NCBI GenBank assembly: GCA_030696545.1
Contig: JAUYSA010000157.1
Location: 1-42,636, forward strand
Length of the DNA stretch: 42,636 nucleotides
From: Hyphomonadaceae bacterium
GTDB lineage: Bacteria > Pseudomonadota > Alphaproteobacteria > Caulobacterales > Hyphomonadaceae
Direction of reading: 5' to 3'
Position 1 is the first letter of the stretch. Every line of letters begins with the position of its first letter. The position numbers and the translations under genes were made by a program. Below the pieces are notes generated by a model that searched no databases, was not told the origin of the DNA, and saw only the letters and a program-made list of their open reading frames with translations. This document shows, piece by piece, positions 24,985-41,371 of the stretch.

Positions 24985-25123
24985 ACAAAATCTGAGTCCT
25001 GCCGACTCCTCCCGAGCCCAAATCGTGGCTTACGACCCTTAGTTTTCAAGACAAAATCTCCTCTGTGCTCCCTCTGGCTCCCGACTGCGGTCGGGCCTGG
25101 AGCTTGGCCTTTGGAGAACTTCA

Positions 25124-27120: not shown

Positions 27121-27248
27121 GTCCTTTCATGCCGTGCGACCAGCTGACGAGACGCCATCGTTTGCCCCGTGCGGTCCCTCCGGGTCCAAATGCTGGTTTG
27201 CGCGATCCTCGCCAGCACGCATCCTGATGCCTGCAATCGCATCAGGAG

Positions 27249-27500: not shown

Positions 27501-27850
27501 AAACGTCAGCGACAAGGCCTCCCAATCATCCCAACGACTGGAGCCTTCCCGATAAAAATGCCTTCGTGGCGCTGGTCACCCAGACCTACGCCCGAATGGC
27601 CCGTGGCGAGAACAATGTGGTCGCAGCGCACGAGGCCGCGAGGGAGATCGGGCTGGAAAGCGGCGAGCGGCACTGGCTCACGGACGAGGTGCTGGGCGGC
27701 TGCTTCGGTGTCTTCTACGCGCCGTCATCGGACCTCTACGCCAACGCCCGGGACTTCGTGAAATGGGCGGACGCGCGCGACCTGGCCCACATCGGCCCGG
27801 ATGGCGTGGAGTGGGCCCGCGTGTTGGCGGACGCCGAGACGGATCACTGA
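27497..27850 (+). CDS. hypothetical protein
   Basis: ATG 27497 overlaps the previous stop (ATGA). It covers 117 aa of track ORF 27098..27850 (MKTSATRPPNHPNDWSLPDKNAFVALVTQTYARM...). No recognisable family. Confidence 0.5.
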   Translation: MKTSATRPPNHPNDWSLPDKNAFVALVTQTYARMARGENNVVAAHEAAREIGLESGERHWLTDEVLGGCFGVFYAPSSDLYANARDFVKWADARDLAHIGPDGVEWARVLADAETDH

Positions 27851-28060
27851 GCCATCGTTTCCCGGCCCGCGAGCATTGCTGGCATCCCGGGGCGAAACAC
27901 CTTGGCATGCTGTGAGAGTCGGCCGCCCGACCTCAACGGGCGGGCGACCTAATCTCAGGTTGGCACATGGTTTGCTGGCGTTCGCAGCGTCAGCGTGTGG
28001 TTCACAGACAGGAGATTAGGAAGAGCATCATCCCATCACCGCCTATGGAGGGCGGGAACC

Positions 28061-28291
28061 ATGACCGAACATAACGAGACGGGCGTCGCAGGTACGCCCT
28101 CGAACGAAGCCGACATCATCCTCGCGCCGACCGTGGCCGCGCTGATGGGCATCACTTACAACACCTTCCGGTCCTACAGGGCCAACGCTCGCGGCCAGAC
28201 GCCGCCTCCCCTCGGCAAGAGGGCGAGCAACTACCTCTGGTCAATGAAACAGGTCGAGGCATGGCTCGCCGCACGCAGCGAGCGCGGCTGA
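28061..28291 (+). CDS. second excisionase/AlpA-like HTH protein
   Basis: ATG 28061 behind GGAGGG. ILAPTVAALMGITYNTFRSYRANARGQTPPPLGKRASNYLWSMKQVEAWL fits an HTH_17-like pattern. It lies immediately upstream of the primase gene. Confidence 0.6.
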   Translation: MTEHNETGVAGTPSNEADIILAPTVAALMGITYNTFRSYRANARGQTPPPLGKRASNYLWSMKQVEAWLAARSERG

Positions 28292-28294
28292 GCC

Positions 28295-30673
28295 ATGGAC
28301 ATCGACACCAAGCAACTGCGCCGCCTGGCGGACGCGGGCCTGCAGCTCATCCCTCTTCACAGCTGGGACGCGAAGAGCACCGACGCCAAGGGTCGCAAGC
28401 GCGATGACGGCAAACGGCCGCTCGACGCCAGCTGGACCACCCGGCCCTACGACACCCTGAAGGTCGTCGAGCGTGCGGAGCACACCAACTCAAACGTCGG
28501 CGTCCGGCTAACCGCCGAGCAAGTCGTCCTCGACTGGGACCCGCGCGCCGACACCGGCGAATACTCCGACCCCGCGATAAATGCTTTCGTTGAGTTCGTG
28601 CTGTGGCATGGCCTCAACCCCGACGACTTCCCGCAAGTCGAGACGGGCGGCGGCGGGCTGCACATCTACATGGCGAAGCCAGCCGACGTGGCAGTACTCG
28701 GCAGCCTGGAGAACTACCCTGGCGTGGAGTTCAAGACGAAAGGCCAACAGGTCGTGGCGCCGGGCTCGGTCCATCCTAATGGCAAAATCTACGTACTGGT
28801 CGAGGACTTCAACGACATTGGATCGCCCGATCAGGCGCCGAAACATCTGCTCGACGCCATCGTCCGGACGACCACGAGCGCAGCTGTCACCGAAGGCGGC
28901 CAGTACGACCAAGAGCTCATCGCGGCCATGCTCGAAGGCCTCGACCCGGGCGACTTCGGCGAGCACGACAAGTGGCTCAAGCTGATGATGGCGTGCCACC
29001 ATGCATCCGCCGGCGCCGCACGCGAGGAGTTCATCGAATGGTCTACCAAGGACCCGGTGTATCAGGACGACGCCTGGATCATCGGTCGGCGCTGGGACTC
29101 GCTGCACGCGAAGCGGGACGGTGCCACCGTCACCTATAAGTCACTCAACAAGTTCCTGTGCGACGTGGGAAGGGGCGATCTGATCCCCTCTACCGCCGCA
29201 GAGGACTTCGGGGACGACGATCCGGCCATGGCCGATGAGCCGTCGGGCGGAGAGCTGCCTCAGGGACCGCTCACCGGCATGAACGAGAAGTTCTGGGCCG
29301 TGCTCAACGCTGGTCGCTTCCGGATCATGTGGCTGGCGGATGACCCCGAGGAGCCGGGACGCCGCTTCTGGAAGTCGCTGGCGAAGCCGGACTTCGAGGC
29401 GTACCTGTCCAACCGCAAGATCGAGAAGCCTGCGAAGAACAAGAAGGGCGAGACGGTCACCGAGACCACGCCCCTCGCAAAGGCGTGGCTCGACTGGGGC
29501 CATCGGCGCCAGGCGGAGGACGTGGTGTTCGTCCCCGACCGCGAGGTGCCGGGCAGCCTCAACCTCTGGACCGGATGGGGCGTGGATCGCGGTGAGAGCG
29601 GCGAGTGCCGGCTCATGCTGGAGATGATCCGCGACGTGCTCTGCTCGGGCGTGCAGGAGCACTACGACTACCTGATGCGGTGGATGGCCTGGAAGGTACA
29701 GAACCCCGGCGAGCCGAACGAGGTCGCGGTGGTCTTCAAGGGCGCGAAGGGCGTGGGCAAGACGACGCTCGGCGAGTCGCTGGCGAAGATCTTCGGATCG
29801 CACGGCCTGGTGCTGAGCTCGGTGGAACAGATCGCGGGTCGGTTCTCGGGCCATCTCGCGACCGTCTGCTTCCTCTTCGGCGACGAGATATTCTGGGGCG
29901 GCAACAAGACCCACGAGGGCACGCTCAAGAAGATCATCACCGACAGGGAGGTCATGCGCGAGGCCAAGGGTGTGGACATGGTGAGGGCGCGCAACCGCAT
30001 CAGCCTCATGATGGCGACGAACGAGAAGTGGGCCGTCCCGGCATCGCTGGAGGGCGAGCGCCGCTTCTTCGTGCTCAATGTCTCCAGTGAAAGGAAGGTA
30101 CCCGACAGCGCCCCGGCGGACCATCCGAACCGGCTCTACTGGAACGCCGTGCACGACGAGATCAGAGACGGCGGCAGGGCGGCCTTCCTCCGCCACCTGA
30201 TGGCGATGGACCTCGGTCGCTTCCATCCGCGCTCTGCCGTACCGGAGACGGAGGGCATGTCGGAGCAGAAGGTGCACAGCCTCGATCCGCTCCAACGCTG
30301 GCTGCTGTCTGCCACCGAGCTGGGCGTCCTTCCCGGATACCCGAGCACGAAGGACCAGAAGCAGCTTCGCCGTACCGACTGGGAGCTGAAGCAGGACTGG
30401 TCGCAGGTGGAAGCACACGACCCGCCTCGGCTCGACCCCACCTCCGTCATGGAGAACGTCGAGGCCCACTGGTCGAAGCTCCGCTCGCCGGTCCCAGGTG
30501 TGCTGACCGTCAAGAACATGCTGGAGGAGTTCGGCTGGCAGAGCAGGAAGTCGAACGGGGTGGTGACGTGGCGACCGCCGACCCTGGAGCAGGCACGACA
30601 GGAGTGGCGGCGGCGGCTGCCCGGCCTCACGGTCTTCGAGGCGCCGCCCGAGGACGATGAGTGGGACAGCTGA
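28295..30673 (+). CDS. bifunctional primase-polymerase (PrimPol) fused to a D5/P4-type SF3 helicase
   Basis: 792 aa. N-terminal PrimPol motifs LIPLHSWD, VGVRLTAEQVVLDWD, GGGGLHIYMAKP, GVEFKTKGQQVVAPGSVHPNG. Central PriCT-like helical region. C-terminal Walker A VVFKGAKGVGKTTLGESL and Walker B-like CFLFGDE. Confidence 0.88.
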   Translation: MDIDTKQLRRLADAGLQLIPLHSWDAKSTDAKGRKRDDGKRPLDASWTTRPYDTLKVVERAEHTNSNVGVRLTAEQVVLDWDPRADTGEYSDPAINAFVEFVLWHGLNPDDFPQVETGGGGLHIYMAKPADVAVLGSLENYPGVEFKTKGQQVVAPGSVHPNGKIYVLVEDFNDIGSPDQAPKHLLDAIVRTTTSAAVTEGGQYDQELIAAMLEGLDPGDFGEHDKWLKLMMACHHASAGAAREEFIEWSTKDPVYQDDAWIIGRRWDSLHAKRDGATVTYKSLNKFLCDVGRGDLIPSTAAEDFGDDDPAMADEPSGGELPQGPLTGMNEKFWAVLNAGRFRIMWLADDPEEPGRRFWKSLAKPDFEAYLSNRKIEKPAKNKKGETVTETTPLAKAWLDWGHRRQAEDVVFVPDREVPGSLNLWTGWGVDRGESGECRLMLEMIRDVLCSGVQEHYDYLMRWMAWKVQNPGEPNEVAVVFKGAKGVGKTTLGESLAKIFGSHGLVLSSVEQIAGRFSGHLATVCFLFGDEIFWGGNKTHEGTLKKIITDREVMREAKGVDMVRARNRISLMMATNEKWAVPASLEGERRFFVLNVSSERKVPDSAPADHPNRLYWNAVHDEIRDGGRAAFLRHLMAMDLGRFHPRSAVPETEGMSEQKVHSLDPLQRWLLSATELGVLPGYPSTKDQKQLRRTDWELKQDWSQVEAHDPPRLDPTSVMENVEAHWSKLRSPVPGVLTVKNMLEEFGWQSRKSNGVVTWRPPTLEQARQEWRRRLPGLTVFEAPPEDDEWDS

Positions 30674-30677
30674 TCGG

Positions 30678-30965
30678 CTCACAGTGCTCGGTGGCGGACC
30701 GTTCCGGATTGAGCACTGTGCCCAGTCACTGAAAAAGCTCAGCGTTTCCTAGGCAAAGTTCTCACAGTGCTCATAGTGCTCAATAGTATTTGTTTTTATG
30801 CATGAAGAAGAGACTGCAGCAGCTGGTACGACTGGGTAGGCGCTGTGTTGTTCGTCCGTATACGGAACTCGAAACCGGCGAGCCCTGGAGCCCTGGAGCA
30901 CTTTCGCTTCAGAACCAAGGCGTTGCGCAGTGCTAGCTGGAACCCAGTCCGATCACTGAAGCACT
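30678..30965. repeat. candidate replication origin: iterons plus AT-rich tract
   Basis: CACAGTGCTC at 30680-30689 and 30763-30772, variant CATAGTGCTC at 30772-30781, and an inverted copy GAGCACTGTG at 30711-30720. Half-sites GAGCACT at 30896-30902, CAGTGCT at 30928-30934 and AGCACT at 30960-30965. The lowest-GC stretch I noticed by eye is AATAGTATTTGTTTTTATGCATGAAGAAGAG (30782-30812). Tandem CCCTGGAG x2 at 30883-30898. Confidence 0.55.
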
Positions 30966-31197
30966 TTCCCGCCGAGGGGACGCAGCCTGGCGAACCTTGC
31001 AGGGAGCCTTGCAACGCTGGGTTACGGCGCCGAGAACACGCGCCAATCTGAGTCGAGAGTGTGAGACGGCCTCGCGCATATGCGCGCGTAGATCGCCCCT
31101 CATGACGTCTGATCATATGTCCCTCCTACCGGCCCGAAATGCCCTTCCGATCCAAGGCGATGGAGGGGGCTAGTCTCGGAGCCCGACGAGGGGCCCG

Positions 31198-31770
31198 ATG
31201 GAGATCAATGCCGTGACGACTGGAAGACTGCCCGCGGTGATCGAGCGGGAGCGCGACGACGTAGTGGACCGCTTCCTGGAGATCGTCCGCTCGACTGGCA
31301 ATTCCAGCGGCGCCGCCAGAGCCGTGGGGCTGAGCCGCCAGGCGTTCTACGAGCGCGCCGTTCGTGATCCCGACTTTCGGCAAGAATGGGAGCACGCCCA
31401 GCGCCAGTCTCGCAGCCACATCGCCCAGGAGATCATGGATAAGGCGGTGGTGCTCACCGGCCGCGTGATCGAGGAACCGCTCCTGGACCTCCAGGGCAAC
31501 CAGGTCCTGGATGAGAACCTGGAGGCCGTAACGATCCGCCGAGTCGTGGATTACGACGCGCGCATCCTGTCGAAGCTTCTCGATAAGCTGCTCGCATCCG
31601 AGGACGGCGCACCGATCACTGCTGTTCAGGTCAACCTGCCGCCTCCTCCCCCGCCACCTCCGGCCCCTCCGCGTGTCGCGCGCCTGGTCTTCGCGGATGC
31701 TCGGCCTGACGACTCGGCGCCGAGAGTCACCGAAGCGATCCAGGATGCGACCTGGGAGCCTGTGGGATGA
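31198..31770 (+). CDS. terminase-small-subunit-like HTH protein
   Basis: 190 aa. STGNSSGAARAVGLSRQAFYERAVRDPDFRQEWEHAQRQSRSHIAQEIMD...DYDARILSKLLDKLL matches the HTH + helical pattern of proteobacterial prophage TerS proteins. It has a poly-Pro run (PPPPPPPPAPP) near the C-terminus. Confidence 0.55.
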   Translation: MEINAVTTGRLPAVIERERDDVVDRFLEIVRSTGNSSGAARAVGLSRQAFYERAVRDPDFRQEWEHAQRQSRSHIAQEIMDKAVVLTGRVIEEPLLDLQGNQVLDENLEAVTIRRVVDYDARILSKLLDKLLASEDGAPITAVQVNLPPPPPPPPAPPRVARLVFADARPDDSAPRVTEAIQDATWEPVG

Positions 31771-32090
31771 GCGGTATCGTCTTTAAGTTCTTCAGCCTGG
31801 GCGGCGTGATCCTGGAACAGTTCTGCGACCCGGACGCACCAGGCGGCGTTGCGCTTCTGCCAGCCAGGGTCTTCCTGGCGGACCCCAGGGAGTCACGCGA
31901 TGGTTTGGTGGCCGAAATGGCCCGGCGCCTGCCAGCCGAAAGGCGCATCCCCTGGATCGACCACGAGGCGAGAGACCTGGCGGCCCGCACGCTGGGCGCC
32001 GACAACCTGGTCGCCGACGCGGACGCGTACATCCGATCCACGCCCGCATACGAGGGCAGCTCGGACCTCTACCGCGGAGACGACTCGTGA
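31767..32090 (+). CDS. hypothetical protein (paralog pair member 1)
   Basis: ATGA overlap with the TerS-like stop. 107 aa. Shares GLVAEMARRLPAERRIPWIDHE with the next gene. Confidence 0.5.
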   Translation: MSGIVFKFFSLGGVILEQFCDPDAPGGVALLPARVFLADPRESRDGLVAEMARRLPAERRIPWIDHEARDLAARTLGADNLVADADAYIRSTPAYEGSSDLYRGDDS

Positions 32091-32380
32091 GGGTCGAGTT
32101 TCCCAGTGGCGTTGGTGCGTGCGCGATCGCCGACCCAGGTGCGCCAGGGCGCTCGACGACGCTGAGCTTCAGGGTGCTGCTCGGCAACGCGTGCGACGAC
32201 GAGGGGATACTGGCGGAGATGGAGCGGAAACTTCCCGCGGAGAAGCGACTGCCCTGGCGGGACCGAGAGAGCCACGCCTGGGCCATCACGCAGCTGGAGC
32301 GCGGTCCCTATCCAGGCATGTCGGAGGAAGAACAGCGCGCCGCCGTCCAGTATGTCAGGGAGACAGCCTACTATGAGTGA
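32087..32380 (+). CDS. hypothetical protein (paralog pair member 2)
   Basis: GTGA overlap with the previous stop. 97 aa. Motif GILAEMERKLPAEKRLPWRDRE. Confidence 0.5.
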   Translation: MRVEFPSGVGACAIADPGAPGRSTTLSFRVLLGNACDDEGILAEMERKLPAEKRLPWRDRESHAWAITQLERGPYPGMSEEEQRAAVQYVRETAYYE

Positions 32381-32675
32381 CATGGATGCCTTGGTGGCTG
32401 AGGCCGTGAAGGACGCGCCGCCTCTTCCCCACCTCACCCAGGGCGAGAACATCGCCAGGGTCGTATGGGCCATGCTCCACATCACCGGAACGCTGGAGTT
32501 CGGCCGGGGATGGGCTGCTCCTGTCGCAAGGGCGTTCGAGCGAGCTGGCCTCCGTGCTCCTTCCGCAGACGTTCTGTACGCTGAAAAATCCTCCCTGCGC
32601 CGCGACCCACGTCACCGTTCCGCGCACTGTCCTGACCCGGCGCTCATCGAGGACGTGCTCTCCGGTAGGGCCTGA
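32373..32675 (+). CDS. hypothetical protein
   Basis: ATG 32373 overlaps the previous gene by 8 nt. Product MSDMDALVAEAVKDAPPLPHLTQGENIARVVWAMLHITG... No recognisable family. Confidence 0.45.
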   Translation: MSDMDALVAEAVKDAPPLPHLTQGENIARVVWAMLHITGTLEFGRGWAAPVARAFERAGLRAPSADVLYAEKSSLRRDPRHRSAHCPDPALIEDVLSGRA

Positions 32676-32921
32676 CGCCTGGCCTTGGCCGAGTAGCTTC
32701 CTAACGCCTTGGTACGACTCGCCTTCCCGAGCCTTTCGGGGCGCATGTGATCCGCAGTCTGTCGCGCCCGAGGACGCCCGCGTCCTCGAAGGACTCCCAG
32801 GGGAGGCCTGCCATCGTTTCTCGACCGAGGGTTTCCGACGCTGATCGATCGCCACAAGCTGCTCCTCGAACGCACCCATGCCCGCCCGCCCACGAGCGGA
32901 CGCGCGATAGAGGAAAAAGCG

Positions 32922-33482
32922 ATGAAGGCCGACAGGATCAAAGAGCTGACTGCCAGGGGCAACGCCGCTGAGACAGGCGTCGAAAATCTAGATCAAGAAA
33001 TCGCCATCGCGATCGCCGACGGCGTGGACGACGAGATCATCGACGACATGCGCCGCCGCCGCCGGGAACTGATCGAGCAGGCCAGCGACCTCGGAGACGC
33101 CCTCCTCGTCCTTGAGAAGAGAGCCGCTGATCCCCGCGAGAAGCTCCAGGCGTCGATCATCGCTGGCGGTCTTCGCGACGCCAGGCGAGAAGCCGACACC
33201 TACATTCAGTCCGCCGCGGCCGTGGACGCCGCATTGGTTGCGGTCGAGAAGGCGCTGACCGACCTTCGCAAGCATGGCTCGGACCTTAGCCGCGCTCTCC
33301 GCATCGCCGGCGTCGATGACAAGGCCCGTCTCAGCAACACACTGCATTCAGCCACGCGCTGGGCAATATGGAAGAGCTCGCCATCGCTCGCGGAACTGGC
33401 TCAGGTGCCCCATACGCCAGCCAACAAGCGGTTCGCGCTCGCCCACAGCATGCGGCGCGTGATGCCCGCGATCCCGGAGTAG
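32922..33482 (+). CDS. hypothetical coiled-coil protein
   Basis: 186 aa, with RBS GAGGAAAAAG upstream. Charged heptad-like sequence (DDMRRRRRELIEQASDLGDALLVLEKRAADPREKLQ). Confidence 0.5.
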   Translation: MKADRIKELTARGNAAETGVENLDQEIAIAIADGVDDEIIDDMRRRRRELIEQASDLGDALLVLEKRAADPREKLQASIIAGGLRDARREADTYIQSAAAVDAALVAVEKALTDLRKHGSDLSRALRIAGVDDKARLSNTLHSATRWAIWKSSPSLAELAQVPHTPANKRFALAHSMRRVMPAIPE

Positions 33483-33486
33483 AGCC

Positions 33487-33744
33487 ATGACGGGAAAACT
33501 CCCACCGCGCGTCACCGGCGGCACGCTGGCCGCAGACCACCACGACTTCATCGACGCCGCATCGAAGACCGACGTCGATCTTGAGGCAGAGGTGAAGGCC
33601 TTGGAGCAAAGGCGCGACGAACTGGAAGCCGAACTTGCGGCGATCATCATCAACGAGGCCAACCAAAAGCTGGCCGACGAACTCAGACAGCAGGTCGAGA
33701 ACCTGGAAAACGAACTGGCCCAGAGCCAGTCAAGCAAGGAATAG
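33487..33744 (+). CDS. hypothetical coiled-coil protein
   Basis: 85 aa, 4 nt after the previous stop. DLEAEVKALEQRRDELEAELAAIIINEANQKLADELRQQVENLENELAQ. Confidence 0.5.
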   Translation: MTGKLPPRVTGGTLAADHHDFIDAASKTDVDLEAEVKALEQRRDELEAELAAIIINEANQKLADELRQQVENLENELAQSQSSKE

Positions 33745-33748
33745 CCCC

Positions 33749-34042
33749 ATGAGTGACTACCAGAAAGCCACCGACGCAGCGATGCACACGCTGGAGCAGC
33801 TGGAGGAGGGCGTGAACAAACACGCCGAGAGCTTCGGCGTAATCAGAAAGCGAGCGGATGACCTCTACCAGAGCAGGGTCGCCCAGATCGCGAAGGCCAA
33901 CAACGTCGACGTCAACAAGGCGCACGCCCTGGCGGTCGATGATCCCGTCGCCAGCCGAGCCTACGCGCTCTCCGAGGAACTGGCCGAGCGACAGAATGGT
34001 GCGCATGACGCTGGCGAGCAGATCGCAGCGTACCTCGACTAG
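33749..34042 (+). CDS. hypothetical helical protein
   Basis: ATG 33749 behind AAGGAA. 97 aa, MSDYQKATDAAMHTLEQLEEGVNKHAESFGVIRKRADDLYQSRVAQIAK... The N-terminal part of track ORF 33635..34042 is discarded. Confidence 0.5.
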   Translation: MSDYQKATDAAMHTLEQLEEGVNKHAESFGVIRKRADDLYQSRVAQIAKANNVDVNKAHALAVDDPVASRAYALSEELAERQNGAHDAGEQIAAYLD

Positions 34043-34284
34043 ATCAGAAAGGCGTGGAGTAGCCTCGCCCTCGGGTCCTTGCGTTCGGATGCGCGCCGGG
34101 ACCCGCCCAATCCAGGGACACTCGTCTCCCTACGGCGGAGCAGGTTCCACCGAACACCCGCAGGCTGACCGTCATCCGGTCCGCGGCGTGCGGCCCCGGC
34201 GAGTGGTTGCGTCGGGGCCGACCATTTCAAGCTAGACCGCGCAAACGGCCCCTCCTTGGGCACGCCACGTCGGCGCGGAACCTG

Positions 34285-34327
34285 GCCCCCGCTGCGGTCC
34301 TCATGGCCCCGCGGCGGGGGCATTTTT
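34285..34327 (+). terminator. Rho-independent terminator closing the plus-strand small-gene operon
   Basis: GCCCCCGCTGCGG (34285-34297) pairs with CCGCGGCGGGGGC (34309-34321) with one mismatch, followed by ATTTTT. Confidence 0.65.
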
Positions 34328-34681
34328 CTATCTGCGCTTCGCAGGCTTCGCTGAGCCACGCTCGCGCGCCCGCCTGACTTCGGCGTCCGTCAGCACGCCT
34401 GGCTTGTCCTTGCGCAGCCTTGACCTGTACCAGCTGATTGACCGCAGGGTCGTCGCGGCGCCCGGGTGAGTGCGGAAAACCGCCTCCAGCGCCTCATCGT
34501 TCGTGCCGCCACTCAGGATCACGCGCTGCGCGACCTCCGCTACGCCCAGCCAGTGGCCCTCGAACAGGAACCGGCTCACGGCCTCGCGCACCACGTCGCT
34601 GACCGAGCTGCCAGCCACCGAGGCGGCGTCCTCCAGCCCTTCTACCAACTCCTCCGGGATCGTCACATTCATCCGCCGCAT
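34328..34681 (-). CDS. ribbon-helix-helix (CopG-like) regulator with C-terminal extension
   Basis: ORF 34328..34798. Start placed at ATG 34681 (or 34672). The start MRRMNVTIPEELVEGLEDAASVAGSSVSDVVREAVSRFL is a typical RHH N-terminus. It is divergent from the 34789 gene. Confidence 0.7.
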   Translation of the reverse strand: MRRMNVTIPEELVEGLEDAASVAGSSVSDVVREAVSRFLFEGHWLGVAEVAQRVILSGGTNDEALEAVFRTHPGAATTLRSISWYRSRLRKDKPGVLTDAEVRRARERGSAKPAKRR

Positions 34682-34788
34682 CGGGCGGTCCGGCCCCTGC
34701 ATTGCACACCTCATGGCATGGCTGGTGTCTACCGGCCCATCTTTGGACACTTCCGTCCACGGTGGTCGCACATAGGAGTAAATGTGCC
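34682..34788. promoter_or_regulatory. divergent promoter/operator region
   Basis: 107-bp gap between the RHH gene and the plus-strand module. The inverted repeat GCACAT-N8-ATGTGC (34768-34787) spans the AGGAG RBS of the 34789 gene. Confidence 0.35.
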
Positions 34789-35382
34789 ATGAACGCAACT
34801 AAGGGTGGCTACCAACAGCCGAACGACTACCCGGCCCACACTCAAGAGTGGGCGCTGCGCCAGCTGGCGAACGTCGGCCTGCCCGGCGGCGCCAGCTCAG
34901 CCGAGCTGTCCGCGTTCGCTGCGGCGGCAGATCAGCTCCAGGCCGCACTCCGGACCTTCGATCAGACCTTCGTCGACCATGGCCCCGCAATGATCGCGGC
35001 GGTGCTGGTAGACCACGTCGGCGCCGGCTACGTGCTGGACTGCGGCTACTGCTTCGACATCCTGCAGATCGCCAGGGCGGAGTGCGGCTCCGACCGCGGA
35101 GAGATACCGGACGGCCCGCACGCGCGGACGCCTGGGTCCGTGGAAGACCTGACGTTCCTGCTGGACAGCGGCCAGTTCGACAACCTCGATCTGTGCCACG
35201 CCGCATTCGCGGCTGGCCTGGAGGGCCCGACCGAGATCGCCAAGGCAACGGGCGTGAAGGTGACCGTGGTCTCGGGCTGCCTCCACTGGATAAGGAAGGC
35301 GAACGGCGACCTCGCCGAGGCCCGCCGGCTCCGGAACGAGCGCGCCCGAGTGCGTCCTGGCACACCGGCTAGCGGTGAATGA
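34789..35382 (+). CDS. hypothetical protein with C-terminal HTH-like module
   Basis: ATG 34789, 10 nt after AGGAG. 197 aa. The C-terminal EIAKATGVKVTVVSGCLHWIRKANGDLAEARRLRNERA is shared with the next gene. Confidence 0.55.
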   Translation: MNATKGGYQQPNDYPAHTQEWALRQLANVGLPGGASSAELSAFAAAADQLQAALRTFDQTFVDHGPAMIAAVLVDHVGAGYVLDCGYCFDILQIARAECGSDRGEIPDGPHARTPGSVEDLTFLLDSGQFDNLDLCHAAFAAGLEGPTEIAKATGVKVTVVSGCLHWIRKANGDLAEARRLRNERARVRPGTPASGE

Positions 35383-35383
35383 C

Positions 35384-35695
35384 ATGAAGAAGACAGATCA
35401 GCTCTCCGTCGTACACGCCGCCTACATCACTGGCGCCGACACGGGCACTAAGGTCGAGAACGCGACGGGCGTGTCCTACAACTCCGCCAACGACTGCCTG
35501 TGCTGGATCAGGAAGGCCGACGGCGACCTCGAACGCGCGCGGCGTCTTCGCAGCCAACACAGTGTCGCTGTCTACATGCGCAGGTACAATTCGGACCCCG
35601 AGTTTCGTGCTCGTGCGAGGGCGCGCAACACCGCCGCGGAAAGCAGGCTCCGTCAAGAAAAGCGGGCCGCCCGCAACAACGGGGCGACGATGTAA
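35384..35695 (+). CDS. hypothetical protein with the same HTH-like module
   Basis: ATG 35384 lies 1 nt after the previous stop (GTG 35375 is an alternative start). Contains KVENATGVSYNSANDCLCWIRKADGDLERARRLRSQHS, then a YMRRYNSDPEFRARARARN tail. Confidence 0.5.
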   Translation: MKKTDQLSVVHAAYITGADTGTKVENATGVSYNSANDCLCWIRKADGDLERARRLRSQHSVAVYMRRYNSDPEFRARARARNTAAESRLRQEKRAARNNGATM

Positions 35696-35743
35696 CGCCG
35701 TAAGGGCCGCGCGCCCGTAAGCGCCGAATCATTCGCTGACAGG

Positions 35744-35773
35744 AAAAGGCCGGGAGCGATCCCGGCCTTTTTC
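35744..35773 (+). terminator. Rho-independent terminator
   Basis: GGCCGGGA (35748-35755), loop GCGA, TCCCGGCC (35760-35767), then TTTTTC. An A-run precedes it, so it could act in both directions. Confidence 0.75.
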
Positions 35774-35879
35774 ATTCGTAGCATTTTGTCGTCCCCGCCC
35801 CCGGCTCGCGGGCGCCAGCATGCGCGACACGCTCTCCCTCATCGACGCCACCCCGGCGCCGACCAACGGAGACAGTCAC

Positions 35880-36251
35880 ATGGACATGACGAAGATGACT
35901 GCGGGCGAGCTGCTCGCGGTCCACAACGAGCGGTGCCCCAAATCGGACCGCCTCACATCTTGGAAGGCATCGAAGGCGGCGCTGATCGCGAAGATCGAGA
36001 AGCTCGGTGAGCGCTCGAAGCAGACGAGTAAGCCGAAGGCCACCGAGAAGGCGAAACACGCGCCGACGGCCACCATAAGCGACTCGGTGAGGCGTCTGCT
36101 CGCCGATCCCAAGTTGAGTTACGCCGACATTGTTGAACTCGTACTCGCCGCCCATCCCGACGCCGCCACCACGACGCGCTCCATCGCCTCCGTCGCGAGT
36201 GTTCTTCGCAAGAAGGGCACAGCGGTCCCGATGCGGAAGGGAGCGAACTGA
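35880..36251 (+). CDS. hypothetical protein sharing the C-terminal domain of the RHH regulator
   Basis: ORF 35820..36251, with ATG 35880 behind GGAGA. The C-terminal ADIVELVLAAHPDAATTTRSIASVASVLRKKG resembles EALEAVFRTHPGAATTLRSISWYRSRLRKDKPG of the product of 34328..34681. Confidence 0.5.
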   Translation: MDMTKMTAGELLAVHNERCPKSDRLTSWKASKAALIAKIEKLGERSKQTSKPKATEKAKHAPTATISDSVRRLLADPKLSYADIVELVLAAHPDAATTTRSIASVASVLRKKGTAVPMRKGAN

Positions 36252-36252
36252 G

Positions 36253-36549
36253 ATGACCGAATTTTTGGGATGGGGCGTTGCGGTGAAGATCGCGGAGAAA
36301 TTCCACGAACGCATCCGCGCCGAGCTTGGCGAGCACTTGACGGAGATCGACAATCTGAATGCCAAGCAGAAGGACTGCTGTGGAACGCATCTCTACTGTG
36401 ACCCCAACGACTACATGGGGGATGCATTTTTCGAGACGGTCGGAAGAGAGATCAACGTGCAAAGCGGCCACGACCTCGCTGTCTTCGACGTGGCGTGGGG
36501 AATTGCGCGGCGCCGCGGGTTTTCGAGGACGTGGGGGATTGGCGCATGA
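36253..36549 (+). CDS. hypothetical protein
   Basis: ATG 36253 lies 1 nt after the previous stop. 98 aa, MTEFLGWGVAVKIAEKFHERIRAELGEHLTEIDNLNAKQKDCCGTHLYCDPNDYMGDAFFE... No recognisable family. Confidence 0.45.
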   Translation: MTEFLGWGVAVKIAEKFHERIRAELGEHLTEIDNLNAKQKDCCGTHLYCDPNDYMGDAFFETVGREINVQSGHDLAVFDVAWGIARRRGFSRTWGIGA

Positions 36550-36731
36550 TCGGCTTCCTTGAGCTGCCGTGCCTCAGCGGCCCCGCCCTCATCCGTCTCG
36601 ATAGGGTGGTCCTCGTGAGGCCCGACCCCACGGCGGCCGCCACGCGTACTCTCATCGTGTTGGACGGCGCCCAAGAGGTTCTCATCACCAAGCCCGCCGC
36701 GGAGGTGGTGAGCGCGATGAAGGCGGTCTAA
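36546..36731 (+). CDS. hypothetical small protein
   Basis: ATGA overlap with the previous stop. 61 aa, MIGFLELPCLSGPALIRLDRVVLVRPDPTAAATRTLIVLDGAQEVLITKPAAEVVSAMKAV. Confidence 0.4.
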   Translation: MIGFLELPCLSGPALIRLDRVVLVRPDPTAAATRTLIVLDGAQEVLITKPAAEVVSAMKAV

Positions 36732-36756
36732 TCCGGCCAAGGCGAAGAACTGTGTG

Positions 36757-36785
36757 AGGGCGCGGAGCGATCCGCGCCCTTTCTC
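36757..36785. terminator. hairpin terminator between convergent operons
   Basis: AGGGCGCGGA (36757-36766), loop GCGA, TCCGCGCCCT (36771-36780), then TTCTCTATTC on the plus strand. It abuts the stop of the HEPN-like gene. Confidence 0.65.
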
Positions 36786-37273
36786 TATTCTGCTGCGAGC
36801 GGCATCGGTCCGACCATCTCATTGAGCTTCCCATGGAACGCCTTGAGAGCTTCCTGCCCGACCGTCATCGAGCGCATGAGCATCAGCACAGCAGTTCCAG
36901 CGACAAGAAGGTCCACGTCTCGATCCGTCGCCGTCTTGTCGCCGTGGAAGAAGTTGTTCCGCACGTCTTTCAGGTGATCGACGAGCTTGGCGGCGTCCGT
37001 CGAGGCGGCGGGGAAGTCTCCCCAAACCGGCGGACCGTCTTCCGGACCCATGACCAGCTTCCGGGGCGGATGGTCGATCAGATGCCGCGCCTGCGGGAGC
37101 AAGCTGGCCTTGGCGAAGAAGTCGGCGGGCAGCATGAGGACGAACGTCGTCCAGTCGGCGGCCGCGGGTTTACCGGTCTTCCACTTCGTTCCCTTACAGT
37201 GGAGGCCGCCCCGCTTCATCGCGTACTCGAACGCTCCGAACAGCCTCGCGAACTCCATTGCCTGCGGGTACAT
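36785..37273 (-). CDS. HEPN-like protein (R-x4-H motif)
   Basis: 162 aa. RNNFFH at residues 105-110 (nt 36944-36961, verified as CGGAACAACTTCTTCCAC) sits in the context LKDVRNNFFHGDK. The protein is helical, with an N-terminal EFARLFGAFEYAMKRGG helix. It is the last gene of the four-gene operon. Confidence 0.5.
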   Translation of the reverse strand: MYPQAMEFARLFGAFEYAMKRGGLHCKGTKWKTGKPAAADWTTFVLMLPADFFAKASLLPQARHLIDHPPRKLVMGPEDGPPVWGDFPAASTDAAKLVDHLKDVRNNFFHGDKTATDRDVDLLVAGTAVLMLMRSMTVGQEALKAFHGKLNEMVGPMPLAAE

Positions 37274-37285
37274 GGCGGCCTCTCG

Positions 37286-37594
37286 CTAGATCTTGCTCTG
37301 GATGCTGAGCTGCGCCTGCGCGAGCGCGGCCCGTGCTTCCGCGAGCGCGGCGACGGCGGCATGGGCAGACTGTCCGCTCAGGTACGGGCCGGGCGCAGGC
37401 AGATCAGAGGTCGGCGCGGCCGCGACGTGCGGGAAGCTGTCACCAGTGGCGACGTTGGCGATTCGTCCGCCGTTGACGCCGAACCAGCTGGCGATGTCGT
37501 GCTGACGGTCGCCGCGCGCGAGCATGCCCTTCACTATGGCGGCGTCGGCGGCGGTGAGACGGATGCCGCTCGAAGGCGCGCGTTTCCTGGTCAT
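37286..37594 (-). CDS. small HTH protein
   Basis: ORF 37286..37660, with ATG 37594 behind AAAGGA. MTRKRAPSSGIRLTAADAAIVKGMLARGDRQHDIASWFGVNGGRIANVATG fits a sigma-70 region 4 / GcrA-like HTH pattern. Confidence 0.5.
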   Translation of the reverse strand: MTRKRAPSSGIRLTAADAAIVKGMLARGDRQHDIASWFGVNGGRIANVATGDSFPHVAAAPTSDLPAPGPYLSGQSAHAAVAALAEARAALAQAQLSIQSKI

Positions 37595-37608
37595 GGTGAG
37601 GTGTCCTT

Positions 37609-37794
37609 TCACTTCGTGTCGTTGGCGGGTGTGGGAGGCGGGCTGTTTTCGGGAATGCACCCATCAAACAGCTTCGACCGGACGTACTCAGAACGGTCGC
37701 AGTGCCGCTCTTGGGCCGCCCGGTCGAGCGCGTCGCACTGCTCCTCGGTGACCCGGACGGTGACGTACTTGATGCGCTTGGAACCCTTGGCCAT
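37609..37794 (-). CDS. small ribbon-helix-helix protein (MobC/CopG-like)
   Basis: ORF 37609..37938, with ATG 37794 behind GAGGGTGAG. 61 aa, MAKGSKRIKYVTVRVTEEQCDALDRAAQERHCDRSEYVRSKLF. Confidence 0.55.
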   Translation of the reverse strand: MAKGSKRIKYVTVRVTEEQCDALDRAAQERHCDRSEYVRSKLFDGCIPENSPPPTPANDTK

Positions 37795-37805
37795 GACGCT
37801 CACCC

Positions 37806-39506
37806 TCACGCTGCGCGCTTGCGTAGGACGAGGCCCGGGACCTCGGGAAACGGCTCCTTGCGCGGGCCGACCTGCTGCCACTTCAGCGTCGCCACGGGCC
37901 GGTCTTGAAGGTAAGCGTTCCATGCCTTGATGATCCATGCGGCGCGCTCAGCGTCCGGAATGCTGACCTTCTTGTCGATCTTGGCGCGCACGAGCTGGTC
38001 GCGCAGGGTCAGGATCGGGTGGCGCGCCGGGAGCTCGGCGCCGTCCGTCAGGCGATTGAGGAAGAAGTCAGCCTTCCTCGGGTGCACGCGGCGGAAGAAG
38101 TAGTGCAGCGCAATGACGAGCGTCGGCGCGGTGATGTCACGGATCTTCTGACCGTTGCGCACGCTGTCACGGAGCTCGGGGTGCGCCTTCAGCGTGGACA
38201 TCAACTCGGCGTTGGTGGGAGCAGCTCCGCGAGACTGGAGCAGCCCGTTCTCGAAGAGCCAGACCTGACGGAGGCACGCGGCAAGAAGGCTGGTATTCGT
38301 CTCGCCCAGATCCCGCAGAATATCGCCGAAGGCGCGCTTCGACCCGAGGTCGAACGTCTCGAACACCGAGGGATCGAGGCCCCTGACGATCATCGCAGGA
38401 AAGGGCTTGTTCGCAAGAACGCCCGCCTGGAGCCGGTGCTGGCCGTCCAGCAGCCGTCCGTCCTTGGCGACCTTGATAGTCTGGCCGTTGAGCTTCCACG
38501 CCCCGGACTTGATGTCCCTGGCGTACTTCTTCACCACCATACCGGAGATGGGCCGGTTATGATCGTTCCGCTCCAGCAGCATCTCGGCCATGGCCGGATC
38601 TACGTCGACGATCTCCACCTCGATGCCACGGGCGTTGAGGCGTGGACGCCGGCCGCCTGCCGCCGCCTCAGGCACCGAAGCAAGGCCGGTGCGCAGCGCG
38701 TCTTCATCAATCCCACTCACACGAGGCGGGTTGTCGGTCCCGGGCACGAAGCGGAGCTGCTTCATCGGCTCACCGGCGACGAAGGCCTCCCACGCCTTGA
38801 TGAACAGGCCGATCACCAGACCTTGGGACTTCATGCCCCTGGTATCCTGGAGGGCCTGGAGCTGGCGCCGGAGGAGGTAAGCGGGCCCCTCGTCCACTTC
38901 CTCATCTACAAGCTCGTGGAAAAACTCGTTGGCCTTCTCGGGGTCGCGCTTCCAGAACAGGTAGTGCATGGCAGCGACCACGCCGAGCGACATGAACGAA
39001 GACGCGTCGGCGGCCAGCGCCATGCTCAGCCGGACATCCGGGTTGTTCGCCAGGATCTGGAGACGCTGCTGGGCCGTCACCTTCCGCCCAGGAGCGGCGT
39101 AGTTGTCATTCGCATACCGCCAGAGGACTGCCAGCGCCGCAGCAAGGGCGCGCCCGTTCTCCTCGTCCTTGATCGACAGGATGTCCCCAACGGTGCGGCT
39201 GCGCACTGCATCGATCGTGTCGAATGCAGAGTCTGCAACGCCTCGGACCAGCAACGCGGGGAAGGGAACCTTGGCTTGGACGCCTGCCGCCAGACGCAAA
39301 ACGCCGTCGAGAACTTGCCCGCTCTGGCCAAGGATGACAGGCTCGCCGTTCATGCGCCAGCGGCCCATTCTCATGTCTTCGGCGAAGGCCTCGACCTGCT
39401 GGGGGTTCAGGCGCCGCTCCAGCCGCTTCTTTTGGAGAAGCAAGGCGGCCTCTGCTGGCTTGATGAGGACGATCTCGTGGGTGATCTTGGCGGGCGGGCG
39501 CTTCAT
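37806..39506 (-). CDS. tandem-duplicated ParB/Srx-like (DGQHR-type) protein
   Basis: 566 aa made of two homologous halves of about 280 aa. Repeat 2 has ISGMVVKKYARDIKSGAWKLNGQTIKVAKDGRLLDGQHRLQAGV (DGQHR at nt 38433-38447, verified as GACGGCCAGCACCGG). Repeat 1 has the degenerate NPQQVEAFAEDMRMGRWRMNGEPVILGQSGQVLDGVLRLAAGV. Both are followed by similar helical domains (IKAWEAF / IKAWNAY). Confidence 0.65.
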   Translation of the reverse strand: MKRPPAKITHEIVLIKPAEAALLLQKKRLERRLNPQQVEAFAEDMRMGRWRMNGEPVILGQSGQVLDGVLRLAAGVQAKVPFPALLVRGVADSAFDTIDAVRSRTVGDILSIKDEENGRALAAALAVLWRYANDNYAAPGRKVTAQQRLQILANNPDVRLSMALAADASSFMSLGVVAAMHYLFWKRDPEKANEFFHELVDEEVDEGPAYLLRRQLQALQDTRGMKSQGLVIGLFIKAWEAFVAGEPMKQLRFVPGTDNPPRVSGIDEDALRTGLASVPEAAAGGRRPRLNARGIEVEIVDVDPAMAEMLLERNDHNRPISGMVVKKYARDIKSGAWKLNGQTIKVAKDGRLLDGQHRLQAGVLANKPFPAMIVRGLDPSVFETFDLGSKRAFGDILRDLGETNTSLLAACLRQVWLFENGLLQSRGAAPTNAELMSTLKAHPELRDSVRNGQKIRDITAPTLVIALHYFFRRVHPRKADFFLNRLTDGAELPARHPILTLRDQLVRAKIDKKVSIPDAERAAWIIKAWNAYLQDRPVATLKWQQVGPRKEPFPEVPGLVLRKRAA

Positions 39507-39840
39507 CGGGTTTGACCTGCGGCGGGCAACAGGGCTTGCCCAAGAGCAATCTCTGCCCGTCGCCTAACATGAGCAAGAAGATTCGTGTTGCACGCCTCGT
39601 CACCGTCAACTGGGTTGACCATGGGAGAAGGTAAAATCCGTCCTATGCCCCTGATTATTCAGCCTAAAACACGATCAAGAAGGGTGCGATGAGGATTCAG
39701 CAGTGCCGACTTTGTTCTTCCCATACGGAAGCATGATCCGTGTCGTCGCGGGGGTCATCAGCACGGCGTCGGCGGTCCTGCGATTCTCATGCAAAGCAAA
39801 CGCTGGTCCCCTTCTAGCATAAAACGCAGCAACATGGGCT

Positions 39841-40461
39841 ATGGAAACAGCCCACCAACGCCTGGCGGCCGCCCTGCACCGGGAAGGCATCGCGAACGAA
39901 GAGTCCGCCTCGCCGGAGGCGGCTGGACGCCTTTGCGCAGAGCTGGGTATCTCACCGAAGAGCCTGCGAAACCGGCGCTGGGAGCTCAAAAAGGCCTCTG
40001 AAGCGGGCTGCGAGGCAAACCAAGGACCGGTTAGCGCGCAGGGGCGAAGATACAGGTCGGACCCAGCCTACGCTGCCGCGATGCGTGAAAAGGCGCGGAG
40101 AGCCCGCGTGAGGAACTACGCCTATCACGTATTCAAGAACACGCGCGGCAACGCACGGAAACGCGGCCTGCGCTTCGAGCTCACGCGAGAACAAGTCGCT
40201 GAACTGCTGGTGCCGATGCAATGCTCGATGACCGGCCTCCCGCTTCTGCCAGATTGGGACGGTCCCGGCCGCAACCCGTGGTGGCCCAGCCTCGATCAGA
40301 TCGACCCGTGCGCTGGCTACACAAGGCAGAATGTCCGAGTGGTCTGCTGGGCCTATAACGTGATGAAGGGCGAACTGACCGACCAAGAGGTCCGTATCTA
40401 CGCCTCCGCCCTGTTGCGCGGCCCCTCGGGCCGGACCCGGAGGCCGGGGACAAGATCATAG
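39841..40461 (+). CDS. HNH-like (DRID-GY-NV motif) protein, paralog 1
   Basis: 206 aa. ARKRGLRFELTREQVAELLVPMQCSMTGLPL...PSLDQIDPCAGYTRQNVRVVCWAYNVMKG matches a pattern I recognise from phage-associated HNH-type proteins (S-DRID-x-GY-x-NV). Confidence 0.55.
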   Translation: METAHQRLAAALHREGIANEESASPEAAGRLCAELGISPKSLRNRRWELKKASEAGCEANQGPVSAQGRRYRSDPAYAAAMREKARRARVRNYAYHVFKNTRGNARKRGLRFELTREQVAELLVPMQCSMTGLPLLPDWDGPGRNPWWPSLDQIDPCAGYTRQNVRVVCWAYNVMKGELTDQEVRIYASALLRGPSGRTRRPGTRS

Positions 40462-40505
40462 CCGCACGTCTCTACAGCAACGGGGTCTCCGCGTCGGCGC
40501 ACCTG

Positions 40506-40856
40506 ATGCGCACGTGGCGGGCGAGTGCTGGCGGCAGAGGCCTAGAGTTCTCGCTGACCTACGACTGGCTCAGTCCACGCCTGACGAGGGGAGTATGCGA
40601 GGTCACGGGTCTACCGCTGGCGATGGAGTACGGAGGGCGTGCGCACCGGAACCCTCTCGTTCCGAGCGCAGACCGGATCGACGGCTCGAAGGGATACTCC
40701 CCTGAGAACGTGCGCCTCGTCTGCGGCTGGTTCAACTACGCCCGACAGGACTGGCCTGATGAGGTCGTCAGGAAGGTGGCGCTGGGACTATTGCGCCTCA
40801 GTTCTCGTGCCGCTTTCCGGAGTCGAACCGGAACGACCGAAGTCGCCGCATTTTGA
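40506..40856 (+). CDS. HNH-like (DRID-GY-NV motif) protein, paralog 2
   Basis: 116 aa. GGRGLEFSLTYDWLSPRLTRGVCEVTGLPL...PSADRIDGSKGYSPENVRLVCGWFNYARQ. The last ~49 nt run into the antisense tRNA-Leu gene, so the C-terminus is doubtful. Confidence 0.45.
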   Translation: MRTWRASAGGRGLEFSLTYDWLSPRLTRGVCEVTGLPLAMEYGGRAHRNPLVPSADRIDGSKGYSPENVRLVCGWFNYARQDWPDEVVRKVALGLLRLSSRAAFRSRTGTTEVAAF

Positions 40857-40889
40857 GTGCGGTGCGTCTACCAATTCCGCCAAAGCGGC
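40808..40889 (-). tRNA. tRNA-Leu(CAA), intact, carried inside the element, no encoded CCA
   Basis: Minus strand reads GCCGCTTTGGCGGAATTGGTAGACGCACCGCACTCAAAATGCGGCGACTTCGGTCGTTCCGGTTCGACTCCGGAAAGCGGCA (82 nt). Acceptor GCCGCTT/AAGCGGC, anticodon stem CCGCA/TGCGG with loop CTCAAAA, long variable arm, T-arm TCCGG TTCGACT CCGGA. The downstream bases are CGAG, not CCA. Confidence 0.9.
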
Positions 40890-41044
40890 ACGAGCGGGCG
40901 TTCTAACCCGATCGATCGGATAGCGGAAGTCCGGCTTGGCCTATGTGTGGCTTTTCGGGCTTCGAGATCTGGCCGGACTCGTCCAGAGAGCCGCAACGCC
41001 TTGATCCGGAGTCGATTTTCGTGATGGGCCGCGAGAGGCACTCA

Positions 41045-41056
41045 GGATTTTGAGTC
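41045..41056. repeat. attR core (direct repeat GGATTTTGAGTC)
   Basis: Identical to 24973-24984. Confidence 0.85.
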
Positions 41057-41086
41057 CGTTGCGTCTGCCAATTCCGCCACTCCCGC
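41045..41086 (-). pseudogene. 5-prime fragment of the disrupted tRNA-Leu(CAA) (acceptor to anticodon loop)
   Basis: Minus strand reads GCGGGAGTGGCGGAATTGGCAGACGCAACGGACTCAAAATCC. GCGGGAG pairs with CTCCCGC of the 24928-24984 fragment, and ACGGA pairs with TCCGT there. What follows it (TGAGTGCCTCTCGCGG...) cannot complete a tRNA. Confidence 0.9.
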
Positions 41087-41371
41087 GAGCGCGAGGGGCG
41101 GTGTTAGCGCAGGTGCGCGGCCAGTTAAAGAGGCCGTCTATCAGCTGGAGATCGTGGCCGGGCTTATGAGCTGGATGCTGAAATAGGCGCCAAGGATCAC
41201 GCACATTGCCCAATGCGGGGCAACGCGGAGCGATACAGAACGGATGTTGCGGAGGGTGCGCATAGGGACGACCCGAAACTCTAAGCCGCGGCGGACCATC
41301 CGGCGCGTGATCAGAGCCTCGCCCAAGATCGCAAATATCCGGTTCACGAGATGCAGAAATTTTGATCGAAT

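Follow-up and report, generated by a model that had tools for sequence, protein, structure and literature searches.

Integration into a transfer RNA (tRNA) gene that is left broken and is covered by a tRNA of the element itself was named tRNA-dependent lysogeny in 2024 for the actinobacteriophages Fionnbharth (K4), LeBron (L), Cain (K6) and Gaia (X) (Guerrero-Bustamante and Hatfull, mBio, PMC10865867). Plasmids carrying int and attP of such phages integrate only together with the phage tRNA, and phage mutants without this tRNA form no lysogens; Gaia targets tRNA-Leu-CAA via an 8-bp core (PMC10865867). In Sinorhizobium meliloti, a prophage-borne isoacceptor replaces an inactivated tRNA, which has been attributed to prophages with tRNA-Leu(UAG) (PMC11476347; PMC12429752), and phiLM21-like prophages at tRNA-Leu(UAA) have been reported to rebuild the gene. 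Here we analyze a contig of 42,636 nucleotides from a Hyphomonadaceae bacterium (JAUYSA010000157.1; the whole stretch is called the window in the following), in which a 16,060-bp island (24985-41044) sits between the two halves of a host tRNA-Leu(CAA) gene and carries a different, complete tRNA-Leu(CAA) gene. We consider it highly probable, at roughly 85%, that this is a phage-satellite-like integrative island of 16 kb which uses tRNA-dependent integration.

Both halves of the host gene lie on the minus strand. Read from position 41086, the orphan 5' half (41045-41086) has the sequence GCGGGAGTGGCGGAATTGGCAGACGCAACGGACTCAAAATCC, which runs through the anticodon loop and then passes into the non-tRNA island sequence TGAGTGCCTCTCGCGG. 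The orphan 3' half (24984-24928), GACTCAAAATCCGTCGTCCTAACGGATTTGTGGGTTCGACCCCCACCTCCCGCACCA, includes an encoded CCA and is directly preceded by ...GATTTTGT. Common to both halves is the 12-bp repeat GACTCAAAATCC, present in two identical copies, one on the side of the integrase gene (24973-24984) and one at the far end (41045-41056). Since about 50 repeats of 12 bp are expected by chance in 42.6 kb (our own arithmetic, not the output of a tool), the repeat alone is not significant. However, rejoining the halves at this repeat yields, as judged by ARAGORN, a tRNA-Leu(CAA) of 87 nt that forms a perfect cloverleaf and encodes CCA. The attachment site of the host, attB, thus overlaps the tRNA gene, which is also found intact at the empty site of three relatives described below.

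At neither junction, nor in the reconstructed attP, does ARAGORN find a tRNA. With the Rfam tRNA model (RF00005), the 5' junction, at 24.7 bits, falls short of the gathering score of 29 and lacks the T-arm, while no match is reported for the 3' junction. These results bear out a preliminary description of the locus, according to which the host tRNA-Leu(CAA) is split in its anticodon loop without repair; all of its statements about the sequence proved correct when checked with ARAGORN, with Rfam and by direct reading of both junctions. As a side observation, the island bases CTCTCGC, located seven bases past the core (within 41030-41044), can form six Watson-Crick pairs and one G-U pair with GCGGGAG of the orphan acceptor strand (41080-41086), and this pairing is the source of the 24.7-bit Rfam match. 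A similar acceptor pairing (6/7) exists at a comparable position in two related loci, L057 and L041, and none in two others, L012 and L065; the pairing may have arisen by chance. A functional tRNA without T-arm at the 5' junction was considered and rejected because of the sub-threshold Rfam score and because no such pairing occurs in L012 and L065.

The anatomy of the junctions can be compared to that of classical islands and prophages of the anticodon loop (Islander, PMC4383910). Those elements likewise have a tyrosine integrase that acts on an attB in the anticodon stem-loop, and there, too, a displaced host 3' fragment marks one end. However, attP of the classical elements contains the tRNA's 3' part, with an identity of about 40-50 bp, and the gene is thereby rebuilt, whereas the identity ends after 12 bp in the island. 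Restoration of the gene at one junction, as is typical of the tRNA-regenerating Islander type, is not seen here, and the orphan 5' half present at this locus is never left by the classical mechanism.

Relatives without the island show what the locus looked like before. An amine oxidase gene lies to the left of the 3' half, and the closest homologues of its product are 72-92% identical; those homologues that are named by source are few in number and are labelled Hyphomonadaceae. Three contigs, L061 and L062 (amine oxidase 90% identical) as well as L063, possess an intact tRNA-Leu(CAA) at this locus and no island. Their gene order is amine oxidase, intact tRNA-Leu(CAA) and a gene of the VTT/DedA family, to which the right-flank gene of the window belongs as well, and a fourth contig matches by gene order alone. 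The distance from the amine oxidase gene to the DedA-type gene amounts to approximately 0.7-1.1 kb in the island-free relatives compared to approximately 16.7 kb in the window. Only three positions differ between the tRNA of L061 and L062 and the rejoined tRNA of the window, two of which compensate each other as a pair in the anticodon stem. On both sides, the flanks of window and relatives align, including a conserved block directly upstream of the tRNA. This block (41087-41131, minus strand; TCTTTAAC...GCTAACACC), conserved in the alignment of L061, L062 and L063, is presumed to be the promoter or leader of the host tRNA gene and now faces the orphan 5' half and the island tRNA. We also checked whether island-free relatives already carry the island tRNA. 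It is absent from the loci in L061, L062 and L063, where the host-type tRNA is found instead. The arrangement in the window is an insertion into a formerly intact tRNA-Leu(CAA) gene.

The same evidence bears on the idea that the boundaries were misread or that the contig is chimeric, in which case the tRNA at 40807-40889 would be the resident one and the two halves would be debris or an assembly artefact. The window is indeed a single contig of 42.6 kb, probably of metagenomic origin, and the 12-bp repeat could be due to chance. However, neither the closeness of the rejoined tRNA to the intact gene of the relatives, nor the alignment of both flanks, nor the lack of the island tRNA at the empty sites would be expected in this case. 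Moreover, a matching layout occurs on independent contigs from other assemblies, and a 70%-identical integrase adjoins a matching orphan 3' half in two of them (L109 and L110). This explanation is already largely refuted and appears extremely improbable to us.

The sole tRNA that ARAGORN calls in the window is the complete tRNA-Leu(CAA) of the island (40807-40889, minus strand), which reaches 56.8 bits with Rfam RF00005 against the gathering score of 29. It forms a cloverleaf (ARAGORN) with an A73 discriminator after the acceptor stem and a long variable arm and thereby shows the features of a type II tRNA-Leu. Exactly 155 bp (40890-41044) separate it from the junction. In an alignment of 89 positions, island and host tRNA are identical at 60, and they have different acceptor stems (GCGGGAG for the host tRNA, GCCGCTT for that of the island). 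Therefore, the earlier statement that the island brings its own complete and different tRNA-Leu(CAA) 155 bp inside its end holds on all counts. The island tRNA does not encode CCA, as had also been observed, but the foreign origin that had been deduced from this cannot be argued in that way. CCA is encoded in the island tRNAs of L012, L041, L057, L065, L093, L095 and L107 and absent only in the window and in L044, so its lack is not a trait of the family. The island tRNA overlaps the 3' end of an endonuclease-like open reading frame (ORF; 40506-40856, plus strand) by 50 bp on the opposite strand. Likewise, the tRNA of Fionnbharth overlaps opposite-strand gene 37 at its 3' end (PMC10865867).

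The element is not an isolated case. Its tyrosine integrase gene (25124-26269, plus strand; Pfam Phage_integrase 3.8e-12, Arm-DNA-bind_3 8.6e-07) adjoins the orphan 3' half and has a full-length reading frame. It has 215 homologues at E<=1e-20, and among the matches listed there are 53-70% identical proteins from Rhodobacterales, Hyphomicrobiales, Erythrobacter, Methylobacterium and other Alphaproteobacteria. When representative genomes and Joint Genome Institute (JGI) metagenomes were scanned, 99 integrase loci were obtained, 75 of which are distinct and have enough upstream sequence. An orphan tRNA-Leu 3' half that starts in the anticodon loop lies approximately 200 bp from the integrase gene in 61 of these 75 loci, and an intact tRNA at this site was found in none of the 61. 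A strict motif divides them into 60 UAA loci and one CAA locus, and several of the remainder are variants missed by the motif. The CAA-targeting group includes the window, its closest relatives (P0002 with 70% and P0008 with 67% identity; L109/L110 and L112/L113), L039 and L054.

At the other end of the island, six independent far ends could be read, namely those of the window, L012 (=L070), L041, L057, L065 and L095 (=L102). All six display the same layout: the orphan 5' half of the host gene is followed, after a spacer of about 100-155 bp, by a complete, co-oriented tRNA-Leu, which in each case has the anticodon of the split gene (CAA in one, TAA in five). The core measures 10-12 bp in the window, L012, L041, L057 and L065, the loci in which it was determined. 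In addition, there are three independent junctions in attP form, L044 (9576-10000), L093 (=L099; 2762-3184) and L107 (=L108; 1560-1888), with the order integrase gene, P arm, core, P' arm and tRNA, the latter directly behind the P' arm. Such junctions imply tandem arrays or circular forms. L044 belongs to the isolate genome of Cypionkella aquatica and is a tandem array, since one of the island genes occurs again on its other side, and L107 is located on a 26.8-kb Tara Oceans contig.

A few members deserve mention for their own sake. The smallest relative, L041, has about 2.4 kb and seemingly consists of just the integrase gene, an endonuclease-like remnant (1966-2112) and the tRNA. This cargo tRNA (2457-2533) has 77 nt, a short variable loop (class I shape) and the anticodon UAA, which is unusual for a bacterial tRNA-Leu. 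In L057 (14868-15008), a host tRNA-Leu(CAA) and a tRNA-Leu(UAA) lie in tandem 17 bp apart and only the second one is split, so that the cargo tRNA lies within a former two-tRNA operon. L043 and L056 (both about 250 bp upstream of the integrase gene) as well as L080 (1621-1695) contain an orphan 3' half of tRNA-Asn(GTT), again beginning in the anticodon loop. The neighboring integrases are more distant (51-55% identity), and no cognate cargo tRNA lies within the reach of 10 kb. These halves indicate that the family also targets tRNA-Asn.

The architecture of the attachment site fits an integrase of this kind. The core is made up of the anticodon loop with its 7 nt and of two and three stem bases, and attP and attB share these 12 bp only. 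It thus fits the anticodon-loop class of tRNA-targeting integrases that was reportedly delineated by Williams in 2002. The P arm (24985-25123) extends from the core to the integrase gene and contains the putative arm-type sites AGGCCCG (25092-25098) and AGGCCAA (25104-25110), both on the minus strand, in the arrangement AGGCCAA-GCTCC-AGGCCCG. The P' arm is identical to the spacer of 155 bp (40890-41044) between the core and the island tRNA. It includes a GATCAAGGCGTTGCG block and three putative arm-type sites (40936-40942, 40947-40953 and 40956-40962) with the sequences AAGCCCG, AAGCCAC and AGGCCAA. Spacers homologous to the P' arm of the window are present in L012, L041, L057, L065, L095, L044, L093 and L107, and a GATCAAGGCGTTGCG-like block recurs in the P' arm about 40 bp from the core. 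Paired direct repeats of the AGGCCCG type occur in both arms of L012, L041, L057 and L065, 11-12 bp apart from start to start; in L065, for instance, they read AGGCCCG-GACGA-AGGCCCG in the P arm and AGGCCCG-ATAT-AGGCCCG in the P' arm. Paired putative arm repeats like these would be expected for an integrase with an arm-binding domain.

It could be argued that the island is a decaying relic of a classical tRNA-rebuilding element, whose rebuilt gene has drifted inward, so that the island would be immobile and its layout without functional logic. Degenerate copies do exist in the family. In L071 the spacer is lost, and in L095 (=L102; 9700-12990) the integrase match covers only residues 2-227 and the core of the orphan 3' half is mutated (ATTTAAAATC versus ACTTAAAATC) next to an intact island tRNA. 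L095 looks like a fixed horizontal replacement of a host tRNA-Leu(UAA). In the window, by contrast, the integrase frame is full-length, the core copies are identical and both arms have paired putative arm sites. Furthermore, the attP-form junctions indicate recent recombination activity, and the layout is kept across integrases that are only about 55-70% identical, which argues for selection. We therefore consider a relic to be very unlikely.

For an element that depends on its tRNA, the following sequence of events can be proposed. Integration into the anticodon loop via the 12-bp core leaves two dead tRNA halves, because the island lacks a copy of the tRNA's 3' part. The complete tRNA-Leu(CAA) directly behind the P' arm, on the strand of the split gene, would cover the loss. 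Excision, probably aided by the small HTH/Xis-like proteins of the island (HTH, helix-turn-helix), would rejoin the halves and restore the host tRNA. The central idea of the preliminary description, a disruption without repair combined with a cognate replacement, is supported by the anatomy of the locus, the empty sites, the layout of the family and the experiments with actinobacteriophages (PMC10865867). While the requirement for the tRNA is an experimental result in those phages, for the island we infer by analogy, from the layout of the sequence, that its tRNA is expressed, charged and needed to cover the loss.

Less firmly, we infer that in the integrated state transcription starts at the host tRNA promoter and reads through the orphan 5' half and the spacer into the island tRNA; from such a transcript this tRNA would be freed by RNase P and 3' processing. 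The island tRNA is always co-oriented with the split gene, which speaks for this route, as do a promoter-like site directly upstream of the orphan 5' half in L012 and the distance of only 11 nt between the last arm site and the tRNA in L107. The spacers of the window, L012, L057 and L065 contain neither a promoter-like site in a sigma-70 scan nor a terminator on the same strand. The tRNA-Leu(UAA) that is split in L057 is located 17 bp downstream of the intact tRNA-Leu(CAA) and was therefore probably co-transcribed with it. A reader of UUG matters in this organism, since this codon is about 17 times more common than UUA in the host genes of the window (6.5 vs 0.4 per 1000 codons).

It had also been suggested that the island might be addictive for its host if the split gene was the only CAA isoacceptor, which is unlikely in this simple form. 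Excision at the 12-bp core rejoins an intact host tRNA, as ARAGORN confirms for the joined halves, and therefore a host that loses the island cleanly pays no penalty. The island tRNA would be a licence for survivable integration and not a poison-antidote device. A dependence on the island could only be secondary, as the unused halves decay, and L095 resembles such a state.

Several points weigh against the interpretation given here. The far ends were readable only within 10 kb of the integrase gene, which leaves about 40 loci beyond reach, and a single CAA-targeting far end was seen, that of the window itself. In L071 (9700-12821), an intact tRNA-Leu(UAA) abuts the host flank, and there is neither an orphan 5' half nor a spacer. 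Probably, spacer and one junction were deleted in this locus when the orphan 5' half recombined with the island tRNA, to which it is nearly identical; the island-type 3' part of the L071 tRNA fits such a deletion. The promoter scans use an E. coli-type consensus and are weak evidence in Alphaproteobacteria, so that they do not settle the route of transcription. Finally, leuX of E. coli, a CAA isoacceptor, is dispensable, since tRNA-Leu(UAA) also reads UUG there; tRNA-Leu(UAA) may do so in the present host as well. The loss of the CAA isoacceptor might thus be tolerated here, and complementation might be helpful rather than essential.

This dispensability is also one of the arguments for regarding the island tRNA as mere cargo, which would serve the codon capacity of the island or of its helper phage or make up for a tRNA that an anticodon nuclease of the host has cut, while the split of the host gene would simply be tolerated. 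Roles of this kind have been proposed for phage tRNAs (discussion of PMC10865867). However, the match between the anticodons of cargo and split gene in 6/6 far ends and the invariable, co-oriented position of the tRNA at the edge of attP are difficult to explain in this way, and the codon UUG is rarer in the island genes (4.2 per 1000 codons) than in the host genes (6.5). In addition, most members split tRNA-Leu(UAA), which normally is the sole reader of UUA. We regard the cargo explanation as unlikely.

With respect to its other genes, the island resembles a phage satellite. A small HTH_17 (AlpA/Xis-like) protein (27249-27500, plus strand) is recognized by Pfam HTH_17 with 3.8e-05 and 24.3 bits, just below the 27-bit cutoff, and its gene is conserved beside the integrase gene in 33 loci. 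This protein is a candidate for an excision directionality factor or a regulator. A second small excisionase-like protein (27995-28291, plus strand; PHROG phrog_597 and phrog_66, 'excisionase and transcriptional regulator') is followed by a replication module, a primase-helicase with Prim-Pol, PriCT_2 and DUF5906 (28295-30673, plus strand; Pfam), which is conserved in 29 loci of the family. Downstream of it lies a terS-like gene, whose product resembles a terminase small subunit (31198-31770, plus strand; PHROG phrog_4044 4.4e-09, a short and weak match) and which is conserved in 16 loci. Together, int, HTH_17, Prim-Pol and the terS-like gene form a family backbone that is conserved in about 30 loci. 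A ribbon-helix-helix protein is encoded as well.

The island contains three endonuclease VII/HNH-like genes. One of them is located near one end (26251-27120, minus strand; PHROG phrog_1035 3.4e-07) and has homologues in L041 and L042, and the other two form a tandem by the tRNA (39841-40461 and 40506-40856, plus strand; PHROG phrog_3322 4.4e-29 and 5.7e-26). An equivalent pair adjoins the island tRNA in L057 (13779-14639). A cargo protein of 566 amino acids (37806-39506, minus strand) has two copies of the PHROG phrog_5931 domain (7.9e-111 over 2 stretches) and no match in Pfam or PADLOC, and distant relatives of it with 27-36% identity are found on the IMG/VR viral contigs L001-L004. None of eight cargo ORFs matched a defence system in PADLOC. 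L107 carries a SocA_Panacea-domain protein by its tRNA (1014-1538) and a pair of Vsr endonuclease and DNA cytosine methylase (11353-12526), which illustrates that the cargo varies widely across the family. The island has a GC content of 64.2%, its flanks one of 62%. Two coding regions, one in a host-flank ORF (22403-22710 within 21983-22729) and one in the island (35277-35550), contain internal direct repeats that recur about every 220 bp and are 72-74% identical; duplicated protein domains are their probable cause. When two window ORFs were looked up as exact proteins with their longest-ORF starts, nothing was returned, probably because these start codons differ from those of the called genes.

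Among the scanned island ORFs, no capsid, tail, portal, large terminase or lysis genes were matched by Pfam or PHROG, and an alignment scan with the integrase revealed no relatives in IMG/VR. The element therefore looks like a satellite or island and not like a temperate phage. Without virion genes and IMG/VR relatives, the tRNA-dependent logic stays the same, but the term lysogeny is not strictly applicable. The integrase, the AlpA-like HTH protein, the primase-helicase, the terS-like protein, the lack of capsid and tail genes and the size of about 16 kb are all reminiscent of phage-inducible chromosomal islands (PICIs) and P4-like satellites of Gram-negative bacteria. To our knowledge, however, PICIs and P4-like elements described so far restore the tRNA gene or other site that they target, unlike the present island. 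Two other origins of the split were considered and rejected. A large serine recombinase is not involved, since the 566-aa ORF does not encode a recombinase and the integrase at the junction is of the tyrosine type. A target-site duplication by a transposon does not apply, since what is repeated in every relative is the target's anticodon loop.

Overall, the closest counterparts of the island are the actinobacteriophages mentioned at the beginning, with which it shares a tyrosine integrase, an attB in a tRNA gene, the unrepaired split and a cognate tRNA (PMC10865867). There are also clear differences. The island resides in Alphaproteobacteria whereas Fionnbharth, LeBron, Cain and Gaia infect Actinobacteria, and those are temperate phages while the island has neither virion genes nor relatives in IMG/VR. 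Moreover, the tRNA of the island is located behind the P' arm, is co-oriented with the split gene and may lack a promoter of its own, whereas that of Fionnbharth lies at another place in the phage genome and has been shown to possess a promoter. Prophage Lj965 from Lactobacillus johnsonii, as far as it is described where PMC10865867 cites it, likewise does not rebuild its target tRNA and encodes a cognate one; it is a prophage of Firmicutes, in contrast to the alphaproteobacterial island. The S. meliloti case agrees with regard to the alphaproteobacterial host, the inactivation of a tRNA by integration and the foreign-type replacement borne by the element. Neither a family-wide layout nor the attP structure is described there, and the comparison with the island is one by description only (PMC11476347).

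While the phenomenon as such is already known, the large family of integrases and islands appears to be undescribed. A literature search for this particular island family returned no prior description and only the general phenomenon. The best match of the integrase among GenBank phages is about 25% identical, no Mycobacterium or Gordonia phage is among the matches listed, and nothing close to it was found among the PLSDB plasmids, where one partial match of 61% is located on a Rhizobium gallicum plasmid. New aspects are thus the unrelated integrase family (at most about 25% identity to GenBank phage integrases), carriers that are not phages, the conservation across the family and the fixed place of the tRNA at the edge of attP.

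These findings extend tRNA-dependent integration beyond the actinobacteriophages and to elements other than phages. The carriers are Alphaproteobacteria from the sea and from soil (Rhodobacterales, Hyphomicrobiales, Hyphomonadaceae and others), among them the isolates Sulfitobacter marinus DSM 23422, Cypionkella aquatica NBRC 111766, Allorhizobium undicola ATCC 700741, Erythrobacter sp. NAP1 and Devosia ureilytica XJ19-45. The family also offers tRNA genes a natural way of being turned over horizontally. Since the repeat comprises only 10-12 bp, programs that rely on a rebuilt tRNA and a long direct repeat miss such islands or delimit them wrongly. The annotation of tRNAs in carrier genomes would silently call the foreign tRNA a resident one. 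The compact cassettes of int, attP and tRNA, with about 2.4 kb in the smallest relative, are possible self-complementing integration vectors for Alphaproteobacteria.

As a tentative extension, to which we give somewhat less than even odds, the islands might represent a widespread and so far undescribed group of alphaproteobacterial satellite-like elements that have a complete tRNA gene built into their attachment module, co-oriented with the target. The host tRNA promoter would drive the island tRNA in the integrated state, and the replacement would consequently be made exactly when the host gene is broken. Such a capture of a promoter, if shown by experiment, would arguably be a new variant of tRNA-dependent integration. 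The core of attP and the anticodon of the cargo tRNA would switch together from UAA to CAA, a change of one base. Decay of the unused host halves would then lead to a permanent horizontal replacement of the tRNA gene.

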